From NCBI GenBank assembly GCA_017436525.1, contig JAFSCX010000004.1, forward strand, positions 4,788-68,787: a stretch of 64,000 nucleotides of DNA. Reading direction: 5' to 3'. Both the position numbers and the translations under genes were made by a program. Positions 3,185 through 42,737 of the stretch are shown piece by piece. The DNA is from Clostridia bacterium. Its GTDB lineage: Bacteria > Bacillota > Clostridia > Oscillospirales > QAKW01. How positions within the stretch are numbered: the stretch's first letter is position 1; each line of letters begins with the position of its first letter. Below the pieces are notes generated by a model. The model saw nothing but the letters and a program-made list of their open reading frames with translations. It was not told where the DNA came from and searched no databases.

Positions 3185-4174
3185 TCAATAAGTTTTATAG
3201 TGATCGAAAGTTGCAAAAAAATTTAAGAGTTCTTTTTGATAAGCGTCGGGCGCTGAATAATAGCTCATGCCATGATCGGCATGGGGGATAATCAACATTC
3301 GTTTCGGTCCGGCGCAGGCTTTATAATTTTCATAAGTCATCTCTACCGGTACAAAATGATCCTCCTTCCCATGGATCAGCAAAATCGGGATGGTGCTTTG
3401 GCAGAGCGCATCTAATGTGGAAAAATCGTTGGCCCCGACCTGCAAGGTCTTTTTGCAAAAATGATCTGCCAGCTGCCCCCGCAGGCGATAGGAAAGGTGA
3501 AGATTCTTTTCCGAGACATGCTTCCAAATGGCATGAGGGGAAGTGAAGCCGCAATCAGCGATGATCCCCTTCACATTGCAGGGTAAGCCAAGATCTGCCG
3601 CCATCAATACAGTGGCCGCGCCCATGGAAATGCCGGCAAGATAGAGGGGGAATTTTCCCATTCTTTGATTGACCCATTGAATCCAACATAAGCAATCCTG
3701 CCGCTCTATCAGGCCAAAGCTCATGTGTTCCCCGCCGCTTTCTCCTTGCCCTCGTTGCTCGGCAAAAAGCACATTGCAGCCGGCCTTATGCCAAAAAGAC
3801 GCGATCAAACCAAAATCCCGCGCCCAAGAGGAGCGCCAGCCATGCATGGCGATGATGGTGCGGGCGGGATTTTTGGCAGGATACCAATGGCCTACCAAAG
3901 GAATGCCATCCGCGCCTTTGATCTCGATTTTTTGAGTAGGGAGAGAGCGAAGCTGCTTCTCTCCCTTGCGAAGAGCGCAAAGAAATTCCTTTTGCGGCAG
4001 AATTCCGCTGACCATCTCTCGAACTATTGGGATGTTTTCGATTTTTTTTGCGCCGTTTCGCTCCAGAGCGATTCCGAATAATCGCTTGGTCAGAGCATAA
4101 GAAAAAAATGCCCCGGCGCCAAGGGCTGCTGTGAGAAGAATGAAAAGATGAAGAGCGTGTGATTTTCGGTCCAT
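3185..4174 (-). CDS. Membrane-anchored alpha/beta hydrolase
   Basis: N-terminal TM helix, nucleophile elbow GISMGAAT (GxSxG), a C-terminal HGKEDHFVP/HADHG-type acid/His region. Confidence 0.75.
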   Translation of the reverse strand: MDRKSHALHLFILLTAALGAGAFFSYALTKRLFGIALERNGAKKIENIPIVREMVSGILPQKEFLCALRKGEKQLRSLPTQKIEIKGADGIPLVGHWYPAKNPARTIIAMHGWRSSWARDFGLIASFWHKAGCNVLFAEQRGQGESGGEHMSFGLIERQDCLCWIQWVNQRMGKFPLYLAGISMGAATVLMAADLGLPCNVKGIIADCGFTSPHAIWKHVSEKNLHLSYRLRGQLADHFCKKTLQVGANDFSTLDALCQSTIPILLIHGKEDHFVPVEMTYENYKACAGPKRMLIIPHADHGMSYYSAPDAYQKELLNFFATFDHYKTY

Positions 4175-4385
4175 GATCGATACCTCGTTAAGGATATTAA
4201 TTGTATTTTATTATCACCTTAAATGGTCGGCAATATAGATGTGAATCGTTAAAATAAATTAAAAAGGGGAAAAGGGTGAAAGCTTTATTGCAGTGTTTTA
4301 TTGCTCGAAGACCATTTTCAAGGTAGGAGCATAGAATAAAAGGAGCAAGCATTTGCTCTATAATTCTATGAGGAGAGTAATCAAG

Positions 4386-5531
4386 ATGAATGTTTATAGA
4401 TTTTCAGGCTGCGGCGATGAAGAGTATAGCTACGGTTGCGGAAGAAATTCTGCAAGCAGCTATTCTCATAATGAGCATTGCTGCTGCCCCGTCTGCTGCC
4501 CGGTACAACCCGGTCCCACCGGAGCCACCGGCGCAACAGGCCCTCGGGGCGCGACCGGCCCCACCGGTCCCCAAGGGATTCAAGGGGTCCAAGGCGTTGA
4601 AGGTCCGGCAGGAGCAACCGGTCCTGTCGGTCCTGCCGGATCCCAAGGCGTGCAGGGAATTCAAGGCCCCATCGGCCCCGCAGGACCTACCGGCGCTACC
4701 GGCGCAATCGGCGCAACCGGCCCCACAGGTGCCACAGGTGCCATCGGTCCGATCGGCGCAACCGGTCCCGCAGGTGCTATAGGCGCTACCGGCGCCACAG
4801 GTCCTACCGGTGCTACAGGTGCCACAGGTGCCATCGGTCCGATCGGTGCAACCGGCCCCGCAGGTGCAACCGGCGCCACAGGTCCTATCGGCCCCGCAGG
4901 TGCAACCGGCGCTACAGGAGCTACCGGTTCCGCAGGTGCTACAGGAGCAACCGGCCCTGCAGGAGCTACCGGCGCTACAGGTCCTATCGGCCCCGCGGGT
5001 GCAACCGGCGCTACAGGAGCTACCGGTCCCGCAGGTGCTACAGGAGCAACCGGCCCTGCAGGAGCTACCGGCGCTACCGGCGCAACCGGTGCTACAGGCC
5101 CCGCCGCAGTGCCGGCTTTCTTGCAGGCGCTAAACGAGGAAGCCCAAGCCTCTGCCGCAGAGGGGGCTATTACCTTTGCTACTACGCCCTTGAACGTTGG
5201 TACTGCTGTGAGCCATGCAGATGGGTCTTCGGTGGTTACGGTAGAGGATGAGGGCTACTATTTAGTGGCGTTCCAGACAACCGCCTCTCCCACCGCTTTG
5301 GCAGGTTCGCCTGCTTCTTTGGGGGCTACCCTTTATCAGGATGGTGCGGCCGTTCCGGGGGCGCAAGCAACGGTTTCCTTCACCGATACGGATGAGCTTG
5401 CCACCCTTTCCTTTGTCATCCCCATTGCAGTAGCAAGCACCCCCTCTACGTTGCAGGTGCTTACCGATAGCGCAGGTTTTGATCTCACGCAATCCGCTCT
5501 TACTGTGCAGCGCTTGGGCGATATCGCCTGA
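4386..5531 (+). CDS. Collagen-like triple-helix repeat protein with a BclA-like C-terminal globular domain
   Basis: About 66 uninterrupted G-X-Y triplets ([22 protein letters not shown]...). The N-terminus is Cys-rich ([11 protein letters not shown]...HCCCPVCCP). A non-repetitive beta-rich C-terminal domain of about 145 aa follows. ATG 4386 is preferred over the track's TTG 4353 because AGGAGA lies 8 nt upstream. Confidence 0.85.
4509..5100 (+). repeat. Coding tandem repeat (9-nt GXY periodicity with higher-order 90/99-nt duplications)
   Basis: GGn-nCn-ACn/GCn periodicity. 4881-4979 and 4980-5078 are 99-nt units differing at 3 positions. 4725-4776 and 4815-4866 are about 52 nt with 2 mismatches. 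Confidence 0.9.
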
Positions 5532-9462: not shown

Positions 9463-10737
9463 ATGCGAAGAAATATTTTCATATCTTTCATATTAATCGC
9501 CGCATTGCTTTTGGGCGGCTGCTCCTTCGGCGGGGATCTGAGCGCCATGCTCACCCCGCCTGCCATGAGCGTGGGGCAGGAAGCTCTCACCGGCGCCATT
9601 CGTGCCGCCATCGGGGAGAGCTATGAGCTGGTTTATCCCCAGGCCGGCCCGTATCGTACCGGCATTATTTCGGTGGATCTGACCGGCGATGAAAGAAACG
9701 AAGCGGTCTGCTTCTATCGTGCTTTATCTAAAGGCGCAAAGCTTCGCTTTTTGGTAATGGAAAATCAAGGGGAAAGCTGGAGCGTATTGGCGCGGGGCGA
9801 AAGTGAGGCTTCTTCGGTAGGAAGAGTGGCCTTCGGAGATATTGATGGCCGCGGCGCTGCCGAGCTGATTGTGGGCTGGCAGTATCTTACCGAGGCCGAT
9901 GGAAGCTTTGATATTTATACCTTAGAAGATGGATCGGCCGTCAGCTGCCATACCGGCCTTTACAGCCGCTTTGTGGTGCTGGAGGGGAATCCGGGCGCAT
10001 TGGTGGTGATCAGCCGCAATGCGGAGAGCCGCGCTGTTACAGCCTCTTTGATCGGAAAGCAGCAAGGCGGAATCGGCGTGGTCAATACCGTAGCCATGAA
10101 CGATCGGGCTGTGGATTATCTGGCAGTGGAGGCCGGGCGGATTAAGGGCGATCTGCCTGCTGTATTTGTAGATGAGCAGCTGGAAGGCGGCCAAAGCGCG
10201 ACAGAGGTATTGGTCATCAATGAGCAGGGTCGCCTTGCCAATGAGCTGATCAATCAGGTGAATATGAGCACGCTGCGTTATACGGCGGTTACCTGCAGAG
10301 ATGTCAATCATGATGAGCGAGCAGAAGTGCCGACCGAGGTGATGCTGCCTTCTTATATGCGCAACGGCGTTTCGGAAAATCAATATCTGATCCAATGGAA
10401 TTCCTATGATGGGCAGCAGCTTGAGCCTGTATCGCAAGCATTTATTAATGTAACAGAGAATTTCTCCCTTTCTTTTACAAAAGAATGGGAAGGAAAGATT
10501 ACCATAGAGCGGCCGGCAGATCGCGATCGCGCCTATCAGTTTAAGAGCCTGAAAGGGGAGCTTCTTTTCACAGTGCAGGTCTATGGCTTGGCGGAATATT
10601 CCGAAGAGCTGGGGCGCCAAGGCTGGCGAAAGCTTTATACCGATAGCGATCGGGTCTATACGGTCTATTGCGAGGAAGAAAATTCCTTTGGCATTACCTA
10701 TACGCAGATTTACGGTCTGTTTGATGCAATTAGTTGA
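9463..10737 (+). CDS. Lipoprotein of unknown function
   Basis: Signal peptide with lipobox LLLGGC|S. Contains an FG-GAP-like segment FGDIDGRGAAELIVGW. I recognise no enzymatic motif. Confidence 0.6.
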   Translation: MRRNIFISFILIAALLLGGCSFGGDLSAMLTPPAMSVGQEALTGAIRAAIGESYELVYPQAGPYRTGIISVDLTGDERNEAVCFYRALSKGAKLRFLVMENQGESWSVLARGESEASSVGRVAFGDIDGRGAAELIVGWQYLTEADGSFDIYTLEDGSAVSCHTGLYSRFVVLEGNPGALVVISRNAESRAVTASLIGKQQGGIGVVNTVAMNDRAVDYLAVEAGRIKGDLPAVFVDEQLEGGQSATEVLVINEQGRLANELINQVNMSTLRYTAVTCRDVNHDERAEVPTEVMLPSYMRNGVSENQYLIQWNSYDGQQLEPVSQAFINVTENFSLSFTKEWEGKITIERPADRDRAYQFKSLKGELLFTVQVYGLAEYSEELGRQGWRKLYTDSDRVYTVYCEEENSFGITYTQIYGLFDAIS

Positions 10738-11452: not shown

Positions 11453-12962
11453 GCGTCAATGGCTTGAAAATTTAAGAGAGAAGATCGAATCCCTTAAAGA
11501 GAAGCTGTCGATTTGGGTGGATGTGGTCCGTAAGCATATCTTTACGGGCATCACCCGCCGTTGGCTGATCAATGTCTTCGGCGTTACCCTTTTGGTGGTG
11601 GTGCTGATCTTTACGGTGATGGGCGCGATCATTCAGAATTTCTACTATAATAACTGTATCAGTACCTTAAAAGCCAGCGGAGATTATATGTCTAAGTATT
11701 TTGAGCGGTATATTTACCCCGAATACCGAAGCATCTCGGCAGGGCTGATGGCGATGGTAGAAGATTTTGAGGATAAGAGCATCATGGAGATGCAGGTAGC
11801 CTCCATGAGCGGCAGCATTGCCTATTCCTCCACCGGCTTTGAGATGGATTCCCTTTATGAGACCAATGATCTGCTGCAGGCAAGAGGCGGAAAGACCGCC
11901 CATTGGATCGGAAAATATCAGCCTTCAGGGGAGCAGGTGGTCAGCGTATCAATGCCCCTATATACCGATGATGGAATTCAGGTGGGGACCTTGCGGATGA
12001 TGTCGTCCCTCAAGGCAGTGGACCGCACGCTGATGCATATTAATTGGATGATTGTAGGAATCGGGTTCTTTATTGTCATTCTTACTGCGTTTACCGGCAC
12101 CTATTTTATCAAATCCATTGTATTGCCGGTAGGCTTCATCAATGATACGGCGCTGGAGATTGCAAAGGGCAATATGACCGCGCGGGTAAAATTTGAAGAG
12201 AAAAACGATGAGATCGGCCGCTTGGGGCAGACGATTAATACCATGGCGGAAGAGCTATCTCAAACCGAGCGGCTGAAGAATGAATTCATATCTTCCATCT
12301 CCCATGAGCTGCGTACCCCTCTGACTGCCATCCGCGGCTGGACAGAGACCATGCTGGCAGGGGCCGAGAATATGGATGGGACCACCAAGCGAGGGGTAGA
12401 GATTATCTATAGCGAGACCGAGCGCCTCTCCAAGATGGTGGAGGAGCTTTTGGATATGTCCCGCTTGCAAAACGGAAGCATGAAGCTTTCGGTGGAGCAG
12501 ACGGATCTTTTGGCGGAATTTGAAGAGACGGTCTTCATGATGTGTGAGCGGGCCAAGAGCGAAGATATATTGATCGAATATATTCCGGAGGAGGCAGATA
12601 TTCCCGCCCTTGTGGATAAGGATCGGGTCAAGCAGGTCTTCTTTAATGTCATCGATAATGCGATCAAGCATTCTCATGCAGGCGGCAGAATCGAGATTGC
12701 TGCCCGCGTTGAAGAGCAGAGAGCGCTTTTCATTGTGGAAGACCATGGAGAAGGAATCAGCGCAGAGGATTTGCCTCATATTAAAGATATGTTTTATAAA
12801 GGAAGCTCCCAAAAGCGCGGGAGCGGGATCGGCCTTGGAGTATCGGACGAAATCATGCAGCTCCACGGCGGTTCCTTGGAAATTGAGAGTACCTTAAATG
12901 TTGGCACTGTAGTTACCATCTCCTTCCCCATTGAACCGGAGAAAGAAGAAGCTGCAGACTGA
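11445..12962 (+). CDS. Sensor histidine kinase (two TM helices, extracytoplasmic loop, HAMP, HisKA, HATPase)
   Basis: H-box SHELRTPLTAIRGW, N-box FNVIDNAIKH, G-boxes DHGEGIS and GSGIGLGV. The ATG at 11445 overlaps the response regulator stop (ATGAATAA). Confidence 0.9.
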   Translation: MNKRQWLENLREKIESLKEKLSIWVDVVRKHIFTGITRRWLINVFGVTLLVVVLIFTVMGAIIQNFYYNNCISTLKASGDYMSKYFERYIYPEYRSISAGLMAMVEDFEDKSIMEMQVASMSGSIAYSSTGFEMDSLYETNDLLQARGGKTAHWIGKYQPSGEQVVSVSMPLYTDDGIQVGTLRMMSSLKAVDRTLMHINWMIVGIGFFIVILTAFTGTYFIKSIVLPVGFINDTALEIAKGNMTARVKFEEKNDEIGRLGQTINTMAEELSQTERLKNEFISSISHELRTPLTAIRGWTETMLAGAENMDGTTKRGVEIIYSETERLSKMVEELLDMSRLQNGSMKLSVEQTDLLAEFEETVFMMCERAKSEDILIEYIPEEADIPALVDKDRVKQVFFNVIDNAIKHSHAGGRIEIAARVEEQRALFIVEDHGEGISAEDLPHIKDMFYKGSSQKRGSGIGLGVSDEIMQLHGGSLEIESTLNVGTVVTISFPIEPEKEEAAD

Positions 12963-12981
12963 GTTTTTAGGAGGATGTGCT

Positions 12982-14454
12982 ATGGCAGAATATGCATTGG
13001 GAATCGGTATCGGATTGCTGTTCTATTTTTATACCGTTACCTGTGTCTTTTTCACTGTACGGGTCGCTGCTTTGAAGGGCAGGCGAAAAAGATGGGGCTG
13101 GCTTGCGCTCTTTTTGGGGTTGATCGGCTTTTTGGTTGTATGCTTCCTGCCGAATGGGAAAGGTGTGAGCGGGGAGACCAATCCCGTCAAGGCGGCATTT
13201 CGCCAAATGACAGGCCTCTCTCCCTTGGCTACATGGCTGATTGCGGCAGGCTTGGTGGTGATTGTAGGAGGGGCTCTCATTGGCACTCGTTTGGGGGTCT
13301 ATTTGGAGAATCGCGCCTATGAGAAGGAATTGAGCGAAAAGGAAAGCAACGAAAATGCGTTGGCTCCTGCTTCTGTATACGGAACGGTAGAAAGGATTTT
13401 TGCGGGCAAAGGCCGTAATTATGCCATCACCGATCAAGGAGATCTTTATGGCTGGGGCAATGTGGCCATCACGCCGCTGGATGAGAGCGGCCGCCTTTAT
13501 GAGAAGGTGCAAAAGGTTGCGACAGTAGGGGAGACGACTCTTTTGCTGACAACCGACGGTACGCTCTACGGCAAGGGCAATAATACCAACGGCCTGATTG
13601 CAGGTGCCGAGGAGAAGAATGTAAAAACCTTTACTAAAATTGAGAGCGATGTATTAGATTTTGATCTGGGTGAAACCGCTGCGGCGTTGATTACCAAGCG
13701 GAAGAATCTTTATATCTGGGGTGTGAACACCTATGGTCAGTTGGCAAAGGATGTAGAAAAACGGGCGGAAATCACCGATAAAATTGCATCTGATATCCAA
13801 AAGGTAGAGGTAACCGCCCGCTCGGTCTATTATCTCAATGAGAGCGGCGAGGTTTATGGAGTGGGCAATAATGCCTATGGGCAATTCGGCCTCGGAGATA
13901 AAAAGGTTCGCTACGGAGTGGCGAAGATTGCAAGCAGCTGCAAGGATTTTGCGGCAGGCGAGGATTTTCTGATGCTTCTTAAAAAAGACGGCAGTGTCTG
14001 GACCTGCGGCAATGATGCCTTCGGTCAGCTGGGTCGTAAGACGATGGAAGAGCTGAGCGAGAGCGAGAAAAAAAACCTTGAAAAAGCAAAAGAAAAAGGG
14101 AAAGAAGAAAAAATCCAAATCAAAAAGGCGGCTGAATTCGGGCAGGTAGATCTGCCGGAAGAGGTTTCCAAGGTGGAGGGAGCAGGGCATAGCGCTTTTG
14201 CCTTGATCGGCGGCAATGTCTATGGTTGGGGAGAAAACCAACTGGGGCAGCTGGGCACCGGTTCTAATAAAAATTGCGCCTCTCCGGAATTGGTCTATCG
14301 CAAGGCGGCAGATCTTTCGGCAAGCGGCAGCTGCACTCTGATCCTCTCGGAGGATGGTGCTCTTCTGGGGGCAGGGGATCGCAGAGATCATCAGCTTGGT
14401 GCGCAAAGCGGCCATGGCTTTAAGAGTATTGCTCAGATAAAGGAGGGAGAATGA
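12982..14454 (+). CDS. Membrane-anchored RCC1-repeat (beta-propeller) protein
   Basis: Three predicted N-terminal TM helices, then about 7 RCC1-like blades (LYGWGN, LYGKGNNTNGL, LYIWGVNTYGQL, VYGVGNNAYGQFGLG, VWTCGNDAFGQLG, VYGWGENQLGQLG). A Lys/Glu-rich insert (SESEKKNLEKAKEKGKEEK) is present. ATG 12982 sits behind AGGAGG. Confidence 0.8.
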   Translation: MAEYALGIGIGLLFYFYTVTCVFFTVRVAALKGRRKRWGWLALFLGLIGFLVVCFLPNGKGVSGETNPVKAAFRQMTGLSPLATWLIAAGLVVIVGGALIGTRLGVYLENRAYEKELSEKESNENALAPASVYGTVERIFAGKGRNYAITDQGDLYGWGNVAITPLDESGRLYEKVQKVATVGETTLLLTTDGTLYGKGNNTNGLIAGAEEKNVKTFTKIESDVLDFDLGETAAALITKRKNLYIWGVNTYGQLAKDVEKRAEITDKIASDIQKVEVTARSVYYLNESGEVYGVGNNAYGQFGLGDKKVRYGVAKIASSCKDFAAGEDFLMLLKKDGSVWTCGNDAFGQLGRKTMEELSESEKKNLEKAKEKGKEEKIQIKKAAEFGQVDLPEEVSKVEGAGHSAFALIGGNVYGWGENQLGQLGTGSNKNCASPELVYRKAADLSASGSCTLILSEDGALLGAGDRRDHQLGAQSGHGFKSIAQIKEGE

Positions 14455-15785
14455 TGCTTCGTATTATTTCTGTCGTCGGCTATGTTTTCGGGGCGCTCTT
14501 TGTCCTTCTTTTATTATTGAGCCTTCTGAGAAATACCAAAAAGAAAAGCCTCAAGGTGAGAAAAAAGATCATCAATCGCCGCAAAGTCTATGGCGTGGCG
14601 GCCCTCTTCTTTTTGGTGATCGGGATTGTATTGCAGGTATCTGCAGGGCAGGGGGAGAAAAATCCCAAGGAATTTATCAATGATACGATTCCTGAAGACG
14701 TCTATCAAGCCAATCATTCCTATTCAAGCCTGCCTTCTGAGATTTTTGCGGCGGGAGACGATTATTATATTAAAAATGGAAAGAATCAGATCTTCGGCTA
14801 CCTTGATATCGGCACAGTGGTAGAGACAGAAGACGGTAAAAAGGTGGATTCCTCGTCCTATGAATCGGGCCTTTGCTATACCGACGCTTTGCAGGTAGCA
14901 GGCGGAAAGGATTTTCTGGCGGTGCGCTCCAAGAGCGGCGCGCTGACTCTGATGGGCGCATTTGAATATCTCGCCTATGAAAAGGATACGAGCCATTTTG
15001 AAGGGGAGAAGCGGGCAGAAAAATGCACCTTTTTGGATGCCAACAGTAATAATCTTTTCTATGTGGAAGACGGCACCCTCTACTCGGCAGGTTATAATGC
15101 CTTTGGGGTATTGGGCGATGGTACGGAGCGCAATCGCTTGGAAAGCAGTGCGATTTTAGAGAATGTGGCATCGGTTTCGGTAAGCCCCACCCATGTATTG
15201 GCGGTAGATATTTACGGCAATCTTTATGGATTCGGCGACAACAGCTATTCCGAAATGGGCAACCGCACCACTGCCCAAAGCCCCACGCCCATTAAGCTGA
15301 TGAGCGGGGTGAAGCAAGCGCAGGCCGGAAAATATTTCAGCGTGGTGCTCACGAAAAACGGCGAGGTCTATACAGCCGGCCGCAATCATCTCGGCCAGTT
15401 GGGGACAGAGGACTATCGGGATTATGCCACCTATATGAAGGTGCTGGAGGGTGTGGATAAAATTTCGGTCAAAGGAAATTCCTGCGCAGCCCTCACTGCC
15501 GGCGGTACCCTTTATGTATGGGGGGATAATGCAAAGTATCAGCTGGGCATCAGCGAGCAAAAGGTCAATAAACCCACCAAGGTTTCTGCTGATGTATATG
15601 ATATGGCAATGGGCGAAAACTCCATGGGTGTAATCCTTTTGAATCGGAATGTGGCGGTTACCGGCGTGGCAAGAGAGCAGAAGGATAATGCCTATCTGCG
15701 CACCATCTATGAATTGAATGCGCAGGTCCCCGAGGAGTATTTATATCGCCCCTTGGTCGTCCTGCCTGCTCGGGATGGAGAATAA
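14451..15785 (+). CDS. Second membrane-anchored RCC1-repeat protein
   Basis: Two N-terminal hydrophobic helices, then RCC1-like blades (LYSAGYNAFGVLGDG, LYGFGDNSYSEMG, VYTAGRNHLGQLG, LYVWGDNAKYQLG). ATGATG overlaps the upstream TGA, which suggests translational coupling. Confidence 0.8.
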   Translation: MMLRIISVVGYVFGALFVLLLLLSLLRNTKKKSLKVRKKIINRRKVYGVAALFFLVIGIVLQVSAGQGEKNPKEFINDTIPEDVYQANHSYSSLPSEIFAAGDDYYIKNGKNQIFGYLDIGTVVETEDGKKVDSSSYESGLCYTDALQVAGGKDFLAVRSKSGALTLMGAFEYLAYEKDTSHFEGEKRAEKCTFLDANSNNLFYVEDGTLYSAGYNAFGVLGDGTERNRLESSAILENVASVSVSPTHVLAVDIYGNLYGFGDNSYSEMGNRTTAQSPTPIKLMSGVKQAQAGKYFSVVLTKNGEVYTAGRNHLGQLGTEDYRDYATYMKVLEGVDKISVKGNSCAALTAGGTLYVWGDNAKYQLGISEQKVNKPTKVSADVYDMAMGENSMGVILLNRNVAVTGVAREQKDNAYLRTIYELNAQVPEEYLYRPLVVLPARDGE

Positions 15786-29847: not shown

Positions 29848-30102
29848 GAAAAAACAAAAATGATAGCTGCGAAGCGGCAACTATCATACTAAATCAAAGC
29901 TTTTGGCGAAAAACATCAAAATTCGCCAAAATATAGTAAAGATAGCGCTCCGCAAATCTATGCGACAGCAACAGAACTCTTATTTCCTGCTGCCAGAACG
30001 ATCCTTTGCCATGGATCGCCTTCGGCACCCATCCCTTTCTGCGGCCTCCGCTTTCGGCAAGCGCCATGAAGCTGCGTACTGATGATGCAATGCACCTCTA
30101 TC
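29848..30102 (-). promoter_or_regulatory. Lysine riboswitch (L-box) with terminator expression platform
   Basis: The minus strand reads GATAGAGGTGC...AGTA...GGAGG...GGGATGGGTGCCGAAGG...CTGTTGCTGTCGC...GAGCGCTATC, matching conserved L-box blocks with a P1 of GATAG/CTATC. A downstream hairpin (29861-29886) is followed by TTTTTGTTTTTT on the minus strand. That hairpin has a G-U pair only in the minus-strand RNA. Confidence 0.8.
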
Positions 30103-30111
30103 GATGGTTAG

Positions 30112-36256: not shown

Positions 36257-36574
36257 GTGATCAAAATCGATAATAATTTTTTGGGAGCGGGTATCGCATG
36301 TCTTGCGGGCGTAGGAATTGCCGCAATTAATTATGCAGTTGCCCGTTTTATATTGAAAAAATATCCTGATCAATATGCTGTCGGCCAGCTGATTCGTCAG
36401 GTGCTGCAGATCGGATATCTGCTTCTTCTTTATTTTGCAGGGGCATATCTTCCGTGGGATCGCGTCTGGCTTTTGGTGGGCGGAGCATTGGGGCTTACGT
36501 TGCTGATGCCGCTCTTCACTTATCGCTTGCTTAAGCTGAATGGCTCGGGAAAGGAGGATGGATCTGATGGGTGA
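36257..36574 (+). CDS. Small membrane protein in the AtpI/AtpZ position of the atp operon
   Basis: 105-aa ORF with 3-4 hydrophobic helices directly upstream of, and overlapping, atpB. The GTG start abuts the AAGAGG motif, so the true start is uncertain. Confidence 0.45.
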   Translation: MIKIDNNFLGAGIACLAGVGIAAINYAVARFILKKYPDQYAVGQLIRQVLQIGYLLLLYFAGAYLPWDRVWLLVGGALGLTLLMPLFTYRLLKLNGSGKEDGSDG

Positions 36575-37241
36575 AAAATCGAGAGTGCTGTTTCGCTTGT
36601 TTGGCATTTTGGATGTAACGGGCGAAGTGGTTGCCATGTGGATCTTGCTGGCGCTGATTACCATAGTAGCGCTGATCGTTAAATTTCATTTGAAGGAGCG
36701 CCCCGGCCGATTCCAGAATATGATTGAGGCAGGGGTGGAATATCTGGACCATTTTCTCGGCGATATTCTGGGAGAGAAAAAAGCCCGCAAGCATTTTACC
36801 TTTCTTTCCTCGCTCTTTATCTTTATTTTGTTTGCCAATTATACGGGCTTGATCCCCGGCGTGGGGCTTTCGGATTATGTGAAAGCGCCTACCGCCTCCC
36901 TTTCGGTTACGGTAGGGCTTGGCGTGATCAGCTTTGTATTTTTGCAATATGTAGGCTTGCGGCATAGCGTAAAGGGCTATTTTAAGCGTTTTATCAGCCC
37001 GATGTTCTTTATGCTCCCGCTGATTTTGCTGGATGAATTTATTAAGCCCGCCTCTTTGGCGCTGCGTCTTTTCGGTAATGTATTTGGAGAAGAGATGGTT
37101 ACCGAAGAGCTCTATCATATATTCCCCATCGGAATCCCCGTGGTGATGATGGTGTTATCCATCCTTTTCTGCTATCTGCAGGCCATGGTATTCACTATGC
37201 TCACCTCGATCTATCTCGATGAGATGACCGAAGAAGAATAA
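36567..37241 (+). CDS. atpB: F0F1 ATP synthase subunit a
   Basis: Polytopic protein with the conserved [13 protein letters not shown] arginine-containing helix. The internal ATG at 36567 was chosen. Confidence 0.9.
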
Positions 37242-37270: not shown

Positions 37271-37498
37271 ATGACTTCCGGACTTATTGCTATCGCTGCT
37301 GCTATTGCTATCGCTGTGAGCACCATTGCACCCGCCTTGGGCCAGGGCCTGACCGCCAAGAGCGCAATGGAGAGTATTGCCCGCCAGCCCGATGCTGCCA
37401 AGGAGATTCGTTCTACCCTGATCATCGCTTTGGCGCTGATGGAGGCGCTGACCATCTATGGTCTGCTGATCGCTTTTATGCTGGTGGCAAAGGTATAA
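37271..37498 (+). CDS. atpE: F0F1 ATP synthase subunit c
   Basis: 75-aa hairpin protein with loop ARQPDA and the ion-binding carboxylate in [10 protein letters not shown]. Confidence 0.95.
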
Positions 37499-37508
37499 TA
37501 GGTGCTTT

Positions 37509-37928
37509 ATGACCATTCAATTGTCTGTTACAATATGGACCATCATCTGCTTTTGCTTGCTGATGGTGATCCTTCATCACCTGCTCTTTAAGCCGGTCCT
37601 TCAGCTGATGGATCGCCGCAAAGAGAAGATTGCGGCGGCCGCCGCCAAAAAAGAAGAATATGAGCGGCTTGCTGCAGAGCATGAGGCAAAGCTGATGGAG
37701 CAGCGCCAAGCCGCTCATGAAAAGCGCCAAAAGCAGATGAAGGATGCCCTTGAAAAGATTCGTATCGAAAGCAAGCTTGCGATTGATGGTGCAAAAAAAG
37801 AGCGAATCCGTGAGCTGGATTATAGCCATGCCAAGGCCGATGCGGAGCGAAAAGAGATCCTGCAGGTTCTCAGCGCCCATGGGCCTGCTCTTGCGCGCTC
37901 TTTTGCCGAGTGTTTGACAAAGGACTGA
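37509..37928 (+). CDS. atpF: F0F1 ATP synthase subunit b
   Basis: Single N-terminal TM helix, LFKPVLQLMDRRKEKI, and a long charged helix. Confidence 0.85.
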   Translation: MTIQLSVTIWTIICFCLLMVILHHLLFKPVLQLMDRRKEKIAAAAAKKEEYERLAAEHEAKLMEQRQAAHEKRQKQMKDALEKIRIESKLAIDGAKKERIRELDYSHAKADAERKEILQVLSAHGPALARSFAECLTKD

Positions 37929-37932
37929 TAAT

Positions 37933-40143
37933 ATGGAAATTCAATATGTAATTATCAATTTTCTGATCCTTGCAGGGATCATCATATTGTTTTGCCGCAA
38001 GACCATCATCGGTCTTTTCTCTACCCGCCGCCAGAAGATTTTGAGAGAGCTGGATGAGGCAGAAGCGCAGGAAAAGGCAGAGCTGCCCGAATTGCCTGCT
38101 TCGGAGCCTTTGGAGGCCTCTCTTCCCGAATCCCAAAAGGTGGCGGAAGAGCGCCTTGCTGCGGAGAAAAAGCTTGCGCGGATGAAGGCCTTTGGAAAGC
38201 GGGAATGTGATGAGATTCATCGCATTATGATCGATAAGGTAAAAAAAGAATTTTTCAAAGTGCTGGAAAAGAATGTGGAAGAGGTTTTCTCCAAGGAGCC
38301 CTATCTTTCTAAAATGAGAGAAAAAGAAGGAGCGATCGTAGAGAAGATCTTGGGGATGATTAAGCTTACTCCCGGAGATATGGCATATCTAAAGCGCCAT
38401 GATGTGCTTTATGTTACGATGATCTCTGCCCATCCCCTTGATGAGGCTTTGGTGAAGCGGGTGGACGAGGCTACTACAGCCCTTCTGGAAACGGTGGGTG
38501 GAAAAACCTCCCTTTGGGTATTGCAGGAGCCGAGCTTTATCGGCGGTCTTCGTCTGCGTATCGGGGATACGGTCTACGACGGGACCGTGTCCGAAGAATT
38601 GTATCAATTTGAAAGCGGCATTAAAAAGGAGCCCATTTCCTCCGAAGAAGCCGCGAAAGAGGTCTTGGCGGAGTTTTCCCAAAAGGCTTGCTCTGTTGTG
38701 CCGAAGATTCATGTTTATCAGCTGGGCCGTGTATTGCAGGTATCCGATGGAATCTGCTGGATGGACGGTTTGGCAGATATCATGTACGGTGAGGTTGTGG
38801 AATTTGAATGCGGTGAGCGGGGGATGGTGCTGGATATTCAGCCCGACCGAATCGGCTGCGTCATCTTTGGTGAATATGAAAATATTGAAAGCGGCAGCAA
38901 GGTGCGCCGCGTGGGCAGAATCGCAGCGGTGCCGGTAGGTGAGAGCTTATTGGGCCGCGTGGTGGATGCAGTGGGCAATCCTGTGGACGGAATGGGGCAT
39001 CTTTCCTATTCCGAGACCCGCCCCATAGAGCATCCGGCCCCCGGTATTCCCGATCGTGCCCCCGTCGGCAGGCCGCTTCATACCGGTATTAAAGCTATTG
39101 ATGCTTTGGTTCCCATCGGCCGCGGCCAAAGAGAGCTGATTATCGGCGATCGGCAGACCGGCAAGAGCGCCATTGCCTTGGATGCTATCATCAATCAAAA
39201 AGGAAAAGATACCATCTGTATCTATGTGGCTATCGGCCAAAAGGAGACCTTTGTTGCCGAGATCAAGGAACGCTTGGAGCAGCAAGGCGCCATGGATTAT
39301 ACCATTATCGTGGCGGCGAATGCCTCGGGATCTGCTGCAACGCAGTATATCGCGCCCTTCTCCGGCACAGCCATGGCAGAATACTTTATGTATTCGGGAA
39401 AGGATGTATTGATCATTTATGACGATCTTTCCAAGCATGCAGTGGCTTATCGCGAGCTTTCCCTTCTGCTTCACCGCCCCTCCGGCCGTGAGGCTTATCC
39501 CGGCGATATCTTCTACCTTCATTCCAGATTGCTGGAGCGCTCGGCGCAGCTTTCTGAAAAATTCGGCGGCGGCTCCATTACTGCTTTGCCGATTATTGAG
39601 ACCTTGGCAGGGGATATCTCGGCTTATATTCCTACCAATGTGATCTCTATTACCGATGGTCAGATCTTCTTGGAAAGTGAACTTTTCCATGAAGGGCAAC
39701 GGCCGGCGATCAATGTGGGCCTTTCTGTCTCTCGCGTGGGCGGTGCTGCCCAGACCAAACTGATGAAGCAGATGGCCTCCTCCCTTAGAACCAAGCTGGC
39801 CCAATATCGAGAACTTGCGGATTTCACCCAGCTTGGCACTGATGTGGATGAGGATACCAAAAAGACCTTGAATGCAGGCGCGCATCTGATGGAAGCGCTG
39901 AAGCAAGGCCGATATCAGCCCTTGGAGGATTGGATGCAGGCCTTGCTGCTCTTTGCAGTATCGGAAGGCTATGCGGATGATCTTTCCTTGGAAGAAACGG
40001 CGGCCTTTGAGCAAGGGCTGATTGCCTATTTCGGCAAAGCCTGCGTCTCTATTGTGGAGCGCTTGAAAACCGGTGCGAAGGCAGATCAAGCCTTGCTGGA
40101 GGAGATTCGCGCGGCCATGGCCTCCTTTTCAAAGAGGGCATAA
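37933..40143 (+). CDS. atpA: ATP synthase fusion protein: b-like anchor + delta(OSCP)-like segment + complete alpha subunit
   Basis: Uninterrupted 736-aa ORF. Residues 1 to about 85 give a TM helix (VIINFLILAGIIILF) plus a charged helix. Residues about 140-225 are a delta C-terminal-like signature (HPLDEALVKRV...SFIGGLRLRIGDTVYDGTVSEEL). Residues about 235-736 are alpha (VSDGICWMDGL, Walker A GDRQTGKSAIA, PSGREAYPGDIFYLHSRLLER). There is no separate atpH in the operon. Confidence 0.85.
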   Translation: MEIQYVIINFLILAGIIILFCRKTIIGLFSTRRQKILRELDEAEAQEKAELPELPASEPLEASLPESQKVAEERLAAEKKLARMKAFGKRECDEIHRIMIDKVKKEFFKVLEKNVEEVFSKEPYLSKMREKEGAIVEKILGMIKLTPGDMAYLKRHDVLYVTMISAHPLDEALVKRVDEATTALLETVGGKTSLWVLQEPSFIGGLRLRIGDTVYDGTVSEELYQFESGIKKEPISSEEAAKEVLAEFSQKACSVVPKIHVYQLGRVLQVSDGICWMDGLADIMYGEVVEFECGERGMVLDIQPDRIGCVIFGEYENIESGSKVRRVGRIAAVPVGESLLGRVVDAVGNPVDGMGHLSYSETRPIEHPAPGIPDRAPVGRPLHTGIKAIDALVPIGRGQRELIIGDRQTGKSAIALDAIINQKGKDTICIYVAIGQKETFVAEIKERLEQQGAMDYTIIVAANASGSAATQYIAPFSGTAMAEYFMYSGKDVLIIYDDLSKHAVAYRELSLLLHRPSGREAYPGDIFYLHSRLLERSAQLSEKFGGGSITALPIIETLAGDISAYIPTNVISITDGQIFLESELFHEGQRPAINVGLSVSRVGGAAQTKLMKQMASSLRTKLAQYRELADFTQLGTDVDEDTKKTLNAGAHLMEALKQGRYQPLEDWMQALLLFAVSEGYADDLSLEETAAFEQGLIAYFGKACVSIVERLKTGAKADQALLEEIRAAMASFSKRA

Positions 40144-40146
40144 ACC

Positions 40147-40968
40147 ATGGCAGCTATTCAAAGTTTGAAAAAGCAGCTTCGAGGCATTCGTTCCACCCAA
40201 AAGCTGGCTAAAGCAATGAAAACCATCTCCACCGTTAAATTTTCTAAATTAAACGGTGTATATAGCGGCTATTCCGCCTATGGAAAGCAATGCGAGCAGA
40301 TGTATCGGCAGTTTGGTGATGCCTTTTTAGAGATTGTAGGCGAAGGGCAGCCGGATGCGCCGGTCGCGCTGGTGGTTATAGCAGGGAATAAAGGTCTCTG
40401 CGGCAGTTTTAATTCGGAAGTGCTGCAGTACGCGAAAAGCCAAGCGGAATTGCTTGGCGCTTATCGGCTGATCCCTTGCGGCAAAAAGGCAATTCAATAT
40501 TTCAAAACCAAAAAAATGCCTGCTGAAAAAGAAGTGGTCTTTGGTGATGTGCCTTCTATTGAGGAGACATCGCGGCTTCTGGATGAGCTTCTCTTATGGC
40601 GAAAAGAAGGCAGAATCGGCAAGATCATGGTGGTCTATCCCCAATATCGGAATATGATGCTCCAGCAGCCGGTGATACGGGAATTTTTCGGCAAAGGCGG
40701 GCATGAGGCTTCCAATAGCCTATTTGTACCGGATCAGGCGACCCTTGCGGAGCAGATCGCCCGCAATGTTTTTCATGGGATGTTTTATGAGCTGGTATTG
40801 GAATCAGCCTTGGGAGCGCAGGCGGCTACCTTGATGACCATGCGCGCCGCTTTTGATACAGCCACCGACTATTGCACCCGCTTGGAAGGGCAGATCAATC
40901 GTCAGCGGCAGAGCGCAGTAACTGCCGATGTCATCGAGACCTCCTCCGAACGGGAGGAATCGTTCTAA
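40147..40968 (+). CDS. atpG: F0F1 ATP synthase subunit gamma
   Basis: N-terminus LKKQLRGIRSTQKLAKAMKTISTVKF and a C-terminal helix ...INRQRQSAVTADVIE. Confidence 0.9.
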   Translation: MAAIQSLKKQLRGIRSTQKLAKAMKTISTVKFSKLNGVYSGYSAYGKQCEQMYRQFGDAFLEIVGEGQPDAPVALVVIAGNKGLCGSFNSEVLQYAKSQAELLGAYRLIPCGKKAIQYFKTKKMPAEKEVVFGDVPSIEETSRLLDELLLWRKEGRIGKIMVVYPQYRNMMLQQPVIREFFGKGGHEASNSLFVPDQATLAEQIARNVFHGMFYELVLESALGAQAATLMTMRAAFDTATDYCTRLEGQINRQRQSAVTADVIETSSEREESF

Positions 40969-41042: not shown

Positions 41043-42446
<1,404 letters not shown>

Positions 42447-42452
42447 GATGGT

Positions 42453-42737
42453 ATGAAACTTTCATTAAAGGTTATTACGCCCCAAGGCGTCCTTGGCCCC
42501 TTTGAATGTGATTCGGTGCATCTTACGATCTCGGATGATCTGAGCGGAAAAGGCGGCGGAAGCTATGGCATCCGCCCGGGGCATACTAAGGCGTTGCTCT
42601 CCCTTCAGGAAGGGCCGCTGGATGCTGATCTTGAGGAGCAATGCGTATTTTTTGCAAAGGCAGGGAGCGGCTTTGCTTCCATTGAGCAAAATATAGTAAC
42701 GGTTGTGGTAGAAACCTGCCAAATTGAATCAAAATAA
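42453..42737 (+). CDS. atpC: F0F1 ATP synthase subunit epsilon, short form (beta-sandwich only)
   Basis: 94 aa. The position and N-terminal pattern (KLSLKVITPQG...HLTISD...GIRPGHTKALLSL) fit the epsilon N-terminal domain. I see no C-terminal helical hairpin. Confidence 0.75.
   Translation: MKLSLKVITPQGVLGPFECDSVHLTISDDLSGKGGGSYGIRPGHTKALLSLQEGPLDADLEEQCVFFAKAGSGFASIEQNIVTVVVETCQIESK

Follow-up and report, generated by a model that had tools for sequence, protein, structure and literature searches.

The fused gene and its product

The window, a stretch of 64,000 nucleotides (nt) from the genome of a Clostridia bacterium (GCA_017436525.1, contig JAFSCX010000004.1), contains an F-type ATP synthase (atp) operon with the gene order I-like, a, c, b', fusion, gamma, beta, epsilon. 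The gene following b' is a single open reading frame (ORF) of 736 amino acids (aa) that combines a module affiliated to Fo subunit b, the C-terminal domain (CTD) of subunit delta and a complete alpha subunit. It starts 4 nt past the TGA of the 139-aa atpF-like gene (37509-37928) and ends 3 nt ahead of atpG. A stand-alone delta gene was detected neither in this operon nor in the related loci, and no further ATPase or delta gene occurs elsewhere in the window. A first-pass annotation of the DNA had described an uninterrupted b-like/delta/alpha frame within a canonical operon devoid of atpH. Both descriptions hold: the frame is backed by Pfam and NCBIfam domains, and the gene order by Pfam matches of the neighbouring genes and by its conservation in related loci. 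The fused gene comprises the following features, in part based on an AlphaFold2 model (mean predicted local distance difference test, pLDDT, 73.5).

37933..40143 (+): b-deltaCTD-alpha fusion ORF, 736 aa plus stop, no interruption
37936..37992 (+): predicted N-terminal transmembrane (TM) helix of the b module, residues 2-20 (AlphaFold2 helix; PF00430 at 4-49; Bacillus PS3 b profile match from b residue 11)
37996..38076 (+): predicted membrane-proximal b helix, residues 22-48 (AlphaFold2 helix; hhalign match to b')
38077..38133 (+): Pro/Glu-rich linker, residues 49-67, predicted disordered (DSSP coil 49-67; pLDDT < 50 at 52-65)
38134..38397 (+): predicted long b-module helices, residues 68-155 (68-120, 124-140, 147-155; AlphaFold2; PS3 b profile alignment)
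38404..38619 (+): delta/OSCP C-terminal alpha/beta domain, residues 158-229 (PF00213 positions 98-169; PS3 delta; AlphaFold2 strand/helix pattern)
38620..38643 (+): junction linker IKKEPISS, residues 230-237 (gapless in orthologs; aligns with the engineered linker of 9jc1_I)
38644..40140 (+): complete F1 alpha, residues 238-736, with N-terminal helix, beta-barrel, nucleotide-binding and C-terminal domains (TIGR00962; PF02874, PF00006, PF00306)

The alpha part is a full-length F-type subunit. It scores 704.3 bits against the NCBIfam atpA equivalog TIGR00962 (cut-off 484.45), with residues 243-735 covering model positions 6-500, and contains in order the Pfam domains of the beta-barrel (PF02874, 265-328), the nucleotide-binding domain (PF00006, 385-600) and the C-terminal domain (PF00306, 607-732). 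Alpha chains in the PDB match it with E values of ~1e-175 to 1e-183. The structure model places the alpha N-terminal helix at residues 238-253, after the linker 230-237 and ahead of the beta-barrel. A full-length alpha had been proposed from about residue 235 (nt ~38635); the subunit is as proposed, while its start lies slightly further downstream, at ~237-238 (nt ~38641-38644).

The delta signature that had been read from the sequence is recovered by OSCP (PF00213) at residues 154-227 with 37.0 bits, above the gathering score of 22.3. The match covers only profile positions 98-169 of 172, which correspond to the C-terminal alpha/beta domain of delta, and the same segment aligns with residues 112-171 of the PS3 delta subunit (E = 1.8e-4), with OSCPs from mitochondria and with the mycobacterial b-delta protein (PDB 7jg5, chain d, residues 371-443). 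PF00213 positions 1-97 found no Pfam match in the window protein, and the N-terminal ~95-100 positions were likewise unmatched in the distant fused homologs P0170, P0173, P0179 and P0180. Because these positions are unmatched and residues 1 to ~150 match subunit b instead, delta is by its profile coverage incomplete in the fusion, and its N-terminal domain is to be regarded as absent rather than, as had been suggested, shortened. Residues 69-157 were considered as a remnant of this domain and rejected, since they align with subunit b and are modelled as long single helices.

The affiliation of the N-terminal module with subunit b is supported at the profile level. As a single sequence, the window protein scores 26.2 bits with ATP-synt_B (PF00430, residues 4-49) and falls just short of the gathering score (28). 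A profile built from residues 1-150 of 18 species matches the Bacillus PS3 b subunit (E = 6e-8, b residues 11-149 of 168) and the profile of the neighbouring b' (hhalign, 90%, E = 1.6e-6), and three distant fused homologs (P0173, P0179 and P0180) score above the gathering threshold of PF00430. These matches, together with a predicted single TM helix followed by a long helix, identify the module as an Fo subunit of the b/b' type. The profile matches to PS3 b and b' also agree with the b-type TM helix and charged helix noticed earlier at the N-terminus. A domain search of residues 1-235, proposed at that time, thus returned OSCP above threshold and subunit b at the profile level but not with the single sequence, and the remainder was recognized as alpha.

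Conservation of the fusion

Relatives were collected by scanning one genome per species (GTDB), which yielded 111, and 80 loci were kept and inspected ±6 kb around the fusion. They belong to Acutalibacteraceae, Oscillospiraceae, 'Ca. Fimenecus' or unclassified Clostridia metagenome-assembled genomes (MAGs), several of which are labelled ruminant gut; the nearest relative (L001) is 96.6% identical. The frame is open over 733-742 aa from the b-like start in 76 of the 80 species-level loci, and in the other four it runs into the end of the contig. The junction between delta and alpha aligns with zero gaps in 77 of 77 sequences. Nei-Gojobori dN/dS values of the informative pairs range between 0.03 and 0.10 for the delta CTD, between 0.03 and 0.07 for alpha and mostly between 0.05 and 0.31 for the b parts (mostly 0.05-0.22 for the long helices, residues 68-155). 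Every module of the fusion is under purifying selection. The conservation in related atp operons, which had been named as a check on the fusion, is extensive.

That the fusion stems from faulty assembly or sequencing, or is a pseudogene created when an atpH stop was lost, was a prior suspicion for an observation in a single window of likely metagenome-derived sequence. The same open frame in 76 independent species-level assemblies, the gapless junction and dN/dS values well below 1 in all modules exclude it for practical purposes, and with it the indel that had been considered earlier. At the level of DNA and reading frame, the fusion is very probably the functional gene product.

Conservation is unevenly distributed within the b module. 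The TM helix is its best-conserved part and residues 1-10 are almost invariant. Residues 49-67, the Pro/Glu-rich linker, show the lowest amino-acid conservation of the whole protein (0.36-0.53). This linker may provide slack for reaching the a-subunit, a role that we pose as a question only. In one relative (L083:3125-5497) it is far longer and very acidic.

The gene neighbourhood is conserved along with the fusion. Subunit b' has 138-144 aa in 79 of the 80 loci, epsilon has 88-113 aa in 67 loci, and delta is absent throughout.

Absence of a conserved internal start

F1 contains three alpha subunits, and internal translation initiation had been considered as one way out of the stoichiometry that the fusion imposes. 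Across 77 orthologs, no conserved start codon or Shine-Dalgarno (SD) sequence was found at the junction. Codon 235 is ATT (Ile) in the window; in the 77 species it is ATT, ATA or ATC in 60, CTT or CTC in 13 (CTT in 12) and GTN in four. An ATG follows one codon past the junction in 28 of the 77 species, and the window lacks it. The AGGAG at 38627-38631 pointed out earlier is real, as part of an AAGGAG located 3 nt before ATT-235 with a pairing energy to the anti-SD of -8.1 kcal/mol, but very few orthologs have it. The mean anti-SD energy at the junction of the orthologs is -1.8 kcal/mol, compared with an in-gene background of -2.1 (standard deviation 2.6) and -5.1 at genuine starts. An ATG, GTG or TTG combined with a good SD occurs within codons 215-262 in seven of the 77 sequences; control windows in the gene gave 2-17. 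Lastly, synonymous sites at the junction have an entropy of 0.85-0.88, the same level as in the gene as a whole (mean 0.84), and therefore no hidden nucleotide element is constrained there. The codon census, the anti-SD energies, the start-plus-SD counts and the synonymous entropy together reject an internal start as a conserved feature and render initiation at the junction an unfavourable explanation for the stoichiometry.

Public annotation conceals the fusion from database users. In L081 (GCA_051892415.1), NCBI calls a 502-aa alpha from the ATA (Ile) junction codon inside the open fused ORF (L081:4299-6509), and in L083 (GCA_024405755.1) an alpha of 498 aa whose start is a codon within the open fused ORF (L083:~3185-5497). 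In both, 700-820 nt (230-270 codons) of open in-frame upstream sequence are unannotated, a systematic annotation error as seen in the two records inspected. Partial copies carry the name 'subunit delta, partial'. Five database proteins were dismissed as unfused relatives: in P0059 and P0069 the annotation starts inside an open fused ORF, truncation of a fusion accounts for P0013 and P0049, and the sequence of P0058 begins inside the delta domain.

Classes of natural alpha fusions

An exhaustive phmmer search with residues 150-330 against 1.84 billion representatives, followed by Pfam and sequence inspection, distinguished three classes of natural fusions. The first, b-deltaCTD-alpha, comprises proteins of about 745-770 aa, namely the clade of the window (733-742 aa) and the distant clades of P0170, P0173, P0180, P0153 and P0164. 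By its domain content, the window protein is a member of this class.

The second class consists of deltaCTD-alpha proteins without b, in which a Met precedes the delta domain by a few residues (e.g. P0197, P0200, P0204, P0241 and P0243). The class is large and widespread, with 1189 matches bearing Clostridia MAG names. These proteins are encoded in operons of the type a-c-b(161-163 aa)-[deltaCTD-alpha] with a single, unfused b, and the one complete example (L085) continues with gamma, beta and an epsilon of 135 aa. The c subunit in these operons is unusually long, with 122-124 aa (L085:6001-7747, L086:6001-6696). The third class is represented by P0277 (667 aa, from an AT-rich organism), which joins a near-full-length delta (OSCP profile positions 24-171) to alpha and hence keeps the delta N-domain.

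The sequences of these classes also bear on the short epsilon of the window operon, which was examined as a universal partner of the fusion and rejected as such, since longer epsilons occur both in the b-less L085 and in L084. The short epsilon appears to be clade-specific because the distant b-delta-alpha clade of L084 keeps an epsilon of 132 aa with PF00401 (L084:4878-5276).

Relation to known ATP synthases

The closest counterpart of the window protein was obtained by engineering. The N-domain of delta is a helical bundle that binds the alpha N-termini. In the Bacillus PS3 enzyme, the authors of that work reasoned, its place on the three-fold axis of alpha3beta3 limits the complex to one stalk. 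Deletion of this domain and fusion of delta residues 105-178 via a short linker to the N-terminus of alpha, with an epsilon devoid of its C-terminal domain (epsilonΔC), yielded an enzyme with up to three stalks, every observed one of which was bound to an a-subunit (Ueno et al., Nat Commun 2025, PMC12229609). The enzyme had an H+/ATP ratio of 5.8, about twice that of the wild type, and synthesized ATP at low proton-motive force (PMC12229609). Its b2 homodimer was bound non-covalently and stalks were partly lost in preparation, and the authors sought a stably bound version (PMC12229609).

The window protein has the same arrangement of delta CTD, short linker and alpha, lacks the delta N-domain, and is likewise encoded along with a short epsilon. 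A single alignment with the engineered fusion chain in the PDB (9jc1_I) runs from the delta domain through the GGSG-G linker into alpha with one gap of one residue. In a Foldseek search against the PDB, 9jc1_I/J/K ranked first (E = 7.6e-49, 576-577 aligned columns), above all plain alphas. The covalent link had been thought to replace the contact of the delta N-domain, and this is the design principle demonstrated experimentally by Ueno et al. (PMC12229609). In contrast to the engineered enzyme, the window gene is natural, its fusion extends to b, and the operon has a gene for a distinct b'. The fusion is thus a natural counterpart of the 2025 PS3 enzyme with an additional b fusion.

Ueno et al. 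(PMC12229609) also noted natural deltaΔN-alpha fusions, in Acidaminococcus fermentans (D2RLW6) and in G4Q3K6 and A0A1I2C5T3, and proposed natural multi-stalk enzymes. These Acidaminococcus-type proteins are described as delta-alpha, with b unmentioned, and by that description the window protein differs by a TM-anchored stretch of b, ~155 residues long; a b module may be present in one of these published proteins as well. The first-pass annotation had known of no covalent link to alpha. For delta-alpha this no longer applies since 2025, given the engineered and the Acidaminococcus proteins, whereas for the extra b fusion it stands: the b-deltaCTD-alpha class was not found described in the literature searched (multi-stalk, triple fusion, Acidaminococcus ATP synthase, and papers citing Ueno et al.).

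Other systems share single traits with the window protein. The mycobacterial b-delta protein (PDB 7jg5 chain d, 445 aa) also joins a b-type subunit to delta and is paired with a second, free b. Unlike the window protein, it retains the delta N-domain, is not joined to alpha and is present in one copy in a complex with a single stalk; the combination of b with a complete delta apart from alpha was not found in the window protein. The F1Fo of Chloroflexus aurantiacus, alpha3beta3gamma-epsilon-delta2-a2-b4-c10, is a natural F-type enzyme in which both the peripheral stalks and the a-subunits number two (PNAS 2025, PMC12002316) and in this respect resembles the architecture discussed below. Its two stalks arise from a dimer of shortened delta N-domains with no fused subunits, unlike in the window (PMC12002316). 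One stalk per N-terminal region of the non-catalytic (B) or ATPase subunit is also found in the EG stalks of V/A-type enzymes, which amount to two or three per complex, and in the type III secretion complex FliH-FliI, and FliH is regarded as b-plus-delta-like (10.1101/2021.01.01.425057). These associations are non-covalent, and EG has no TM anchor and serves one a-subunit. Their resemblance to the fusion is one of analogy and distant homology and not of family membership.

A putative ATP synthase with three peripheral stalks

The ion/ATP ratio is a basic bioenergetic constant that has long been held to be set by the size of the c-ring alone, each enzyme having a single stalk and a single a-subunit. 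This one-stalk view was broken twice in 2025, by the engineered enzyme with three stalks and by that of Chloroflexus, which naturally has two.

In the enzyme encoded by the window operon, the fusion would most likely occupy each of the three alpha positions in the alpha3beta3 head, because the operon is without a separate alpha or delta and no internal start is conserved. The missing delta N-domain would remove the limit to one stalk. Each alpha would then carry its own covalent, membrane-anchored stalk, presumably paired with the separate 139-aa b'; this would provide the F-type ATP synthase with three peripheral stalks. Since b is fused as well, one stalk would be tied to every alpha and the predicted three-stalk architecture would be obligatory. 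From the gene content and the analogy to the PS3 enzyme, we assign a probability of roughly 0.6 to such an obligate three-stalk complex. Of the options raised by the first-pass annotation, three tethered stalk modules per enzyme appears to be the best supported.

The analogy to the engineered PS3 enzyme suggests that every stalk may in addition recruit an a-subunit of its own. The number of ions passing per turn of the c-ring would then be multiplied, and a lower ion-motive force could suffice for ATP synthesis. The presence of three a-subunits with a raised ion/ATP ratio is a tentative proposal to which we give somewhat less than even odds. Its extension to a large gut and rumen clade of Oscillospirales (at least 76 species-level genomes), whose enzymes would have three obligate stalks each with an a-subunit and an ion/ATP ratio close to the c-ring size (10 or more) instead of one third of it, is about as tentative, if not slightly more so.

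Several points weigh against the three-stalk architecture. The PF00430 score of the window protein itself lies under the Pfam threshold. Proteolysis at the semi-conserved junction, (R/K/H)(E/D)P(I/L/V), is compatible with the sequence, as is low-level non-canonical initiation. That three b/b' TM helix pairs would surround one c-ring is conceived by analogy only, and neither the number of a-subunits nor the size of the c-ring can be read from sequence. A second atpA or atpH may lie beyond the window, or beyond the ±6 kb inspected in the relatives. In the engineered PS3 preparation, moreover, few particles had the full set of three stalks, and the enzyme was less active than the wild type (PMC12229609).

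Three alternatives were considered. The stalks could be three in number and the a-subunit single, so that two b/b' TM pairs would act as orphan anchors that stiffen the stator and leave the ion/ATP ratio unchanged. A/V-type enzymes with their two or three stalks and one a-subunit set a precedent (discussed in PMC12002316), and the single atpB gene of the operon, without an obvious strong SD, and the flexible Pro-rich linker near the membrane in the b module would fit as well. However, all stalks observed in the engineered multi-stalk enzyme were a-bound (PMC12229609), Chloroflexus has two a-subunits for its two stalks (PMC12002316), and the strong conservation of the fused b TM helix, with its almost invariant first ten residues, is that expected for a specific contact. 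Orphan anchors are for these reasons an unlikely arrangement, although the least unlikely of the three. Slightly less probable is a precursor or dual-product gene, in which cleavage or a non-canonical start (e.g. ATT or ATA) would free alpha for two positions and one uncleaved fusion would supply an ordinary single stalk. This would preserve the canonical 3:1 stoichiometry and could make use of the junction motif, of the AAGGAG ahead of ATT-235 in the window or of the ATG one codon later in 28 of the 77 orthologs. Yet the motif matches no known protease signal, SD strength at the junction is that of the in-gene background, start-plus-SD counts remain within the control range, CTT takes the place of the junction codon in 12 species, and synonymous sites are unconstrained. 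In the absence of the delta N-domain, furthermore, nothing would limit or centre a single stalk (PMC12229609).

The third alternative places an unfused atpA, and possibly an atpH, elsewhere in the genome, with the fusion filling one position or serving a specialised second enzyme. The window spans only 64 kb of the genome, and protein databases contain entries of about 470-520 aa from related MAGs that are given as 'stand-alone' alphas. Two of these, P0059 and P0069, were checked on their contigs and proved to be internal-start annotations of open fused ORFs in the same operon, and P0058 begins inside the delta-like domain. The window itself contains no other ATPase or delta gene, and the operon is otherwise complete and conserved. 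We consider such a second set of genes improbable, clearly more so than the two preceding alternatives.

If the three-stalk architecture with three a-subunits applies, the coupling ratio of the enzyme would exceed that of all other natural rotary ATPases and would allow fermentative anaerobes to synthesize ATP at a very low ion-motive force. A three-stalk design has so far been known only from engineering, and the fusion, kept across many abundant gut and rumen bacteria, looks like nature's answer to the wish for stably bound stalks. It offers a clonable natural system in which to ask whether F-type ATP synthases with three stalks and three a-subunits exist and what their coupling ratio is.

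Operon and window context

The fusion is flanked by the following genes.

36257..36574 (+): small membrane-protein ORF, 105 aa, AtpI-like by position only; a homolog occupies this place in 75 of 81 related loci
36540..37241 (+): atpB, Fo subunit a, 233 aa from the listed start (PF00119, 151.7 bits); conserved in 77 loci
37271..37498 (+): atpE, Fo subunit c, 75 aa (PF00137, 64.4 bits); strong SD, -9.3 kcal/mol
37509..37928 (+): atpF-like b', 139 aa, presumed partner of the fused b (PF00430, 33.6 bits, above gathering score; best NCBIfam match subunit B', NF006293)
40147..40968 (+): atpG, gamma, 273 aa (PF00231, 157.7 bits)
41052..42446 (+): atpD, beta, 464 aa (PF00006, PF02874, PF22919)
42453..42737 (+): atpC, short epsilon, 94 aa, beta-sandwich only, without the C-terminal helical domain (PF02823 as sole match)

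The 105-aa ORF has no Pfam or NCBIfam match and overlaps the listed start of atpB. No SD was found before the listed ATG of atpB, and the true start may lie further downstream. Subunit c displays, as read off its sequence, the ion site 'GQG ... MEALTIYG' and an Ala-rich helix 1 in place of the GxGxGxG motif. We take the ion site to resemble that of cyanobacterial, proton-binding c subunits and to be unlike the Na+ types (E-S/T-T); the Ala-rich helix 1 presumably resembles that of large-ring c subunits.

The remainder of the window holds housekeeping genes and one lysine riboswitch, and no tRNAs were found in it. The riboswitch (RF00168, 79 bits; 29935-30108, -) is located upstream of a dapA/aspartokinase/diaminopimelate decarboxylase block and is ordinary. 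A 424-aa ORF (9463-10737, +) has no Pfam family at E <= 1e-5. A collagen-triple-helix-repeat protein (PF01391) lies beside a GT2/TPR protein (4353-5531, +), and two adjoining RCC1-repeat proteins are encoded downstream of a histidine kinase (12931-15785, +).

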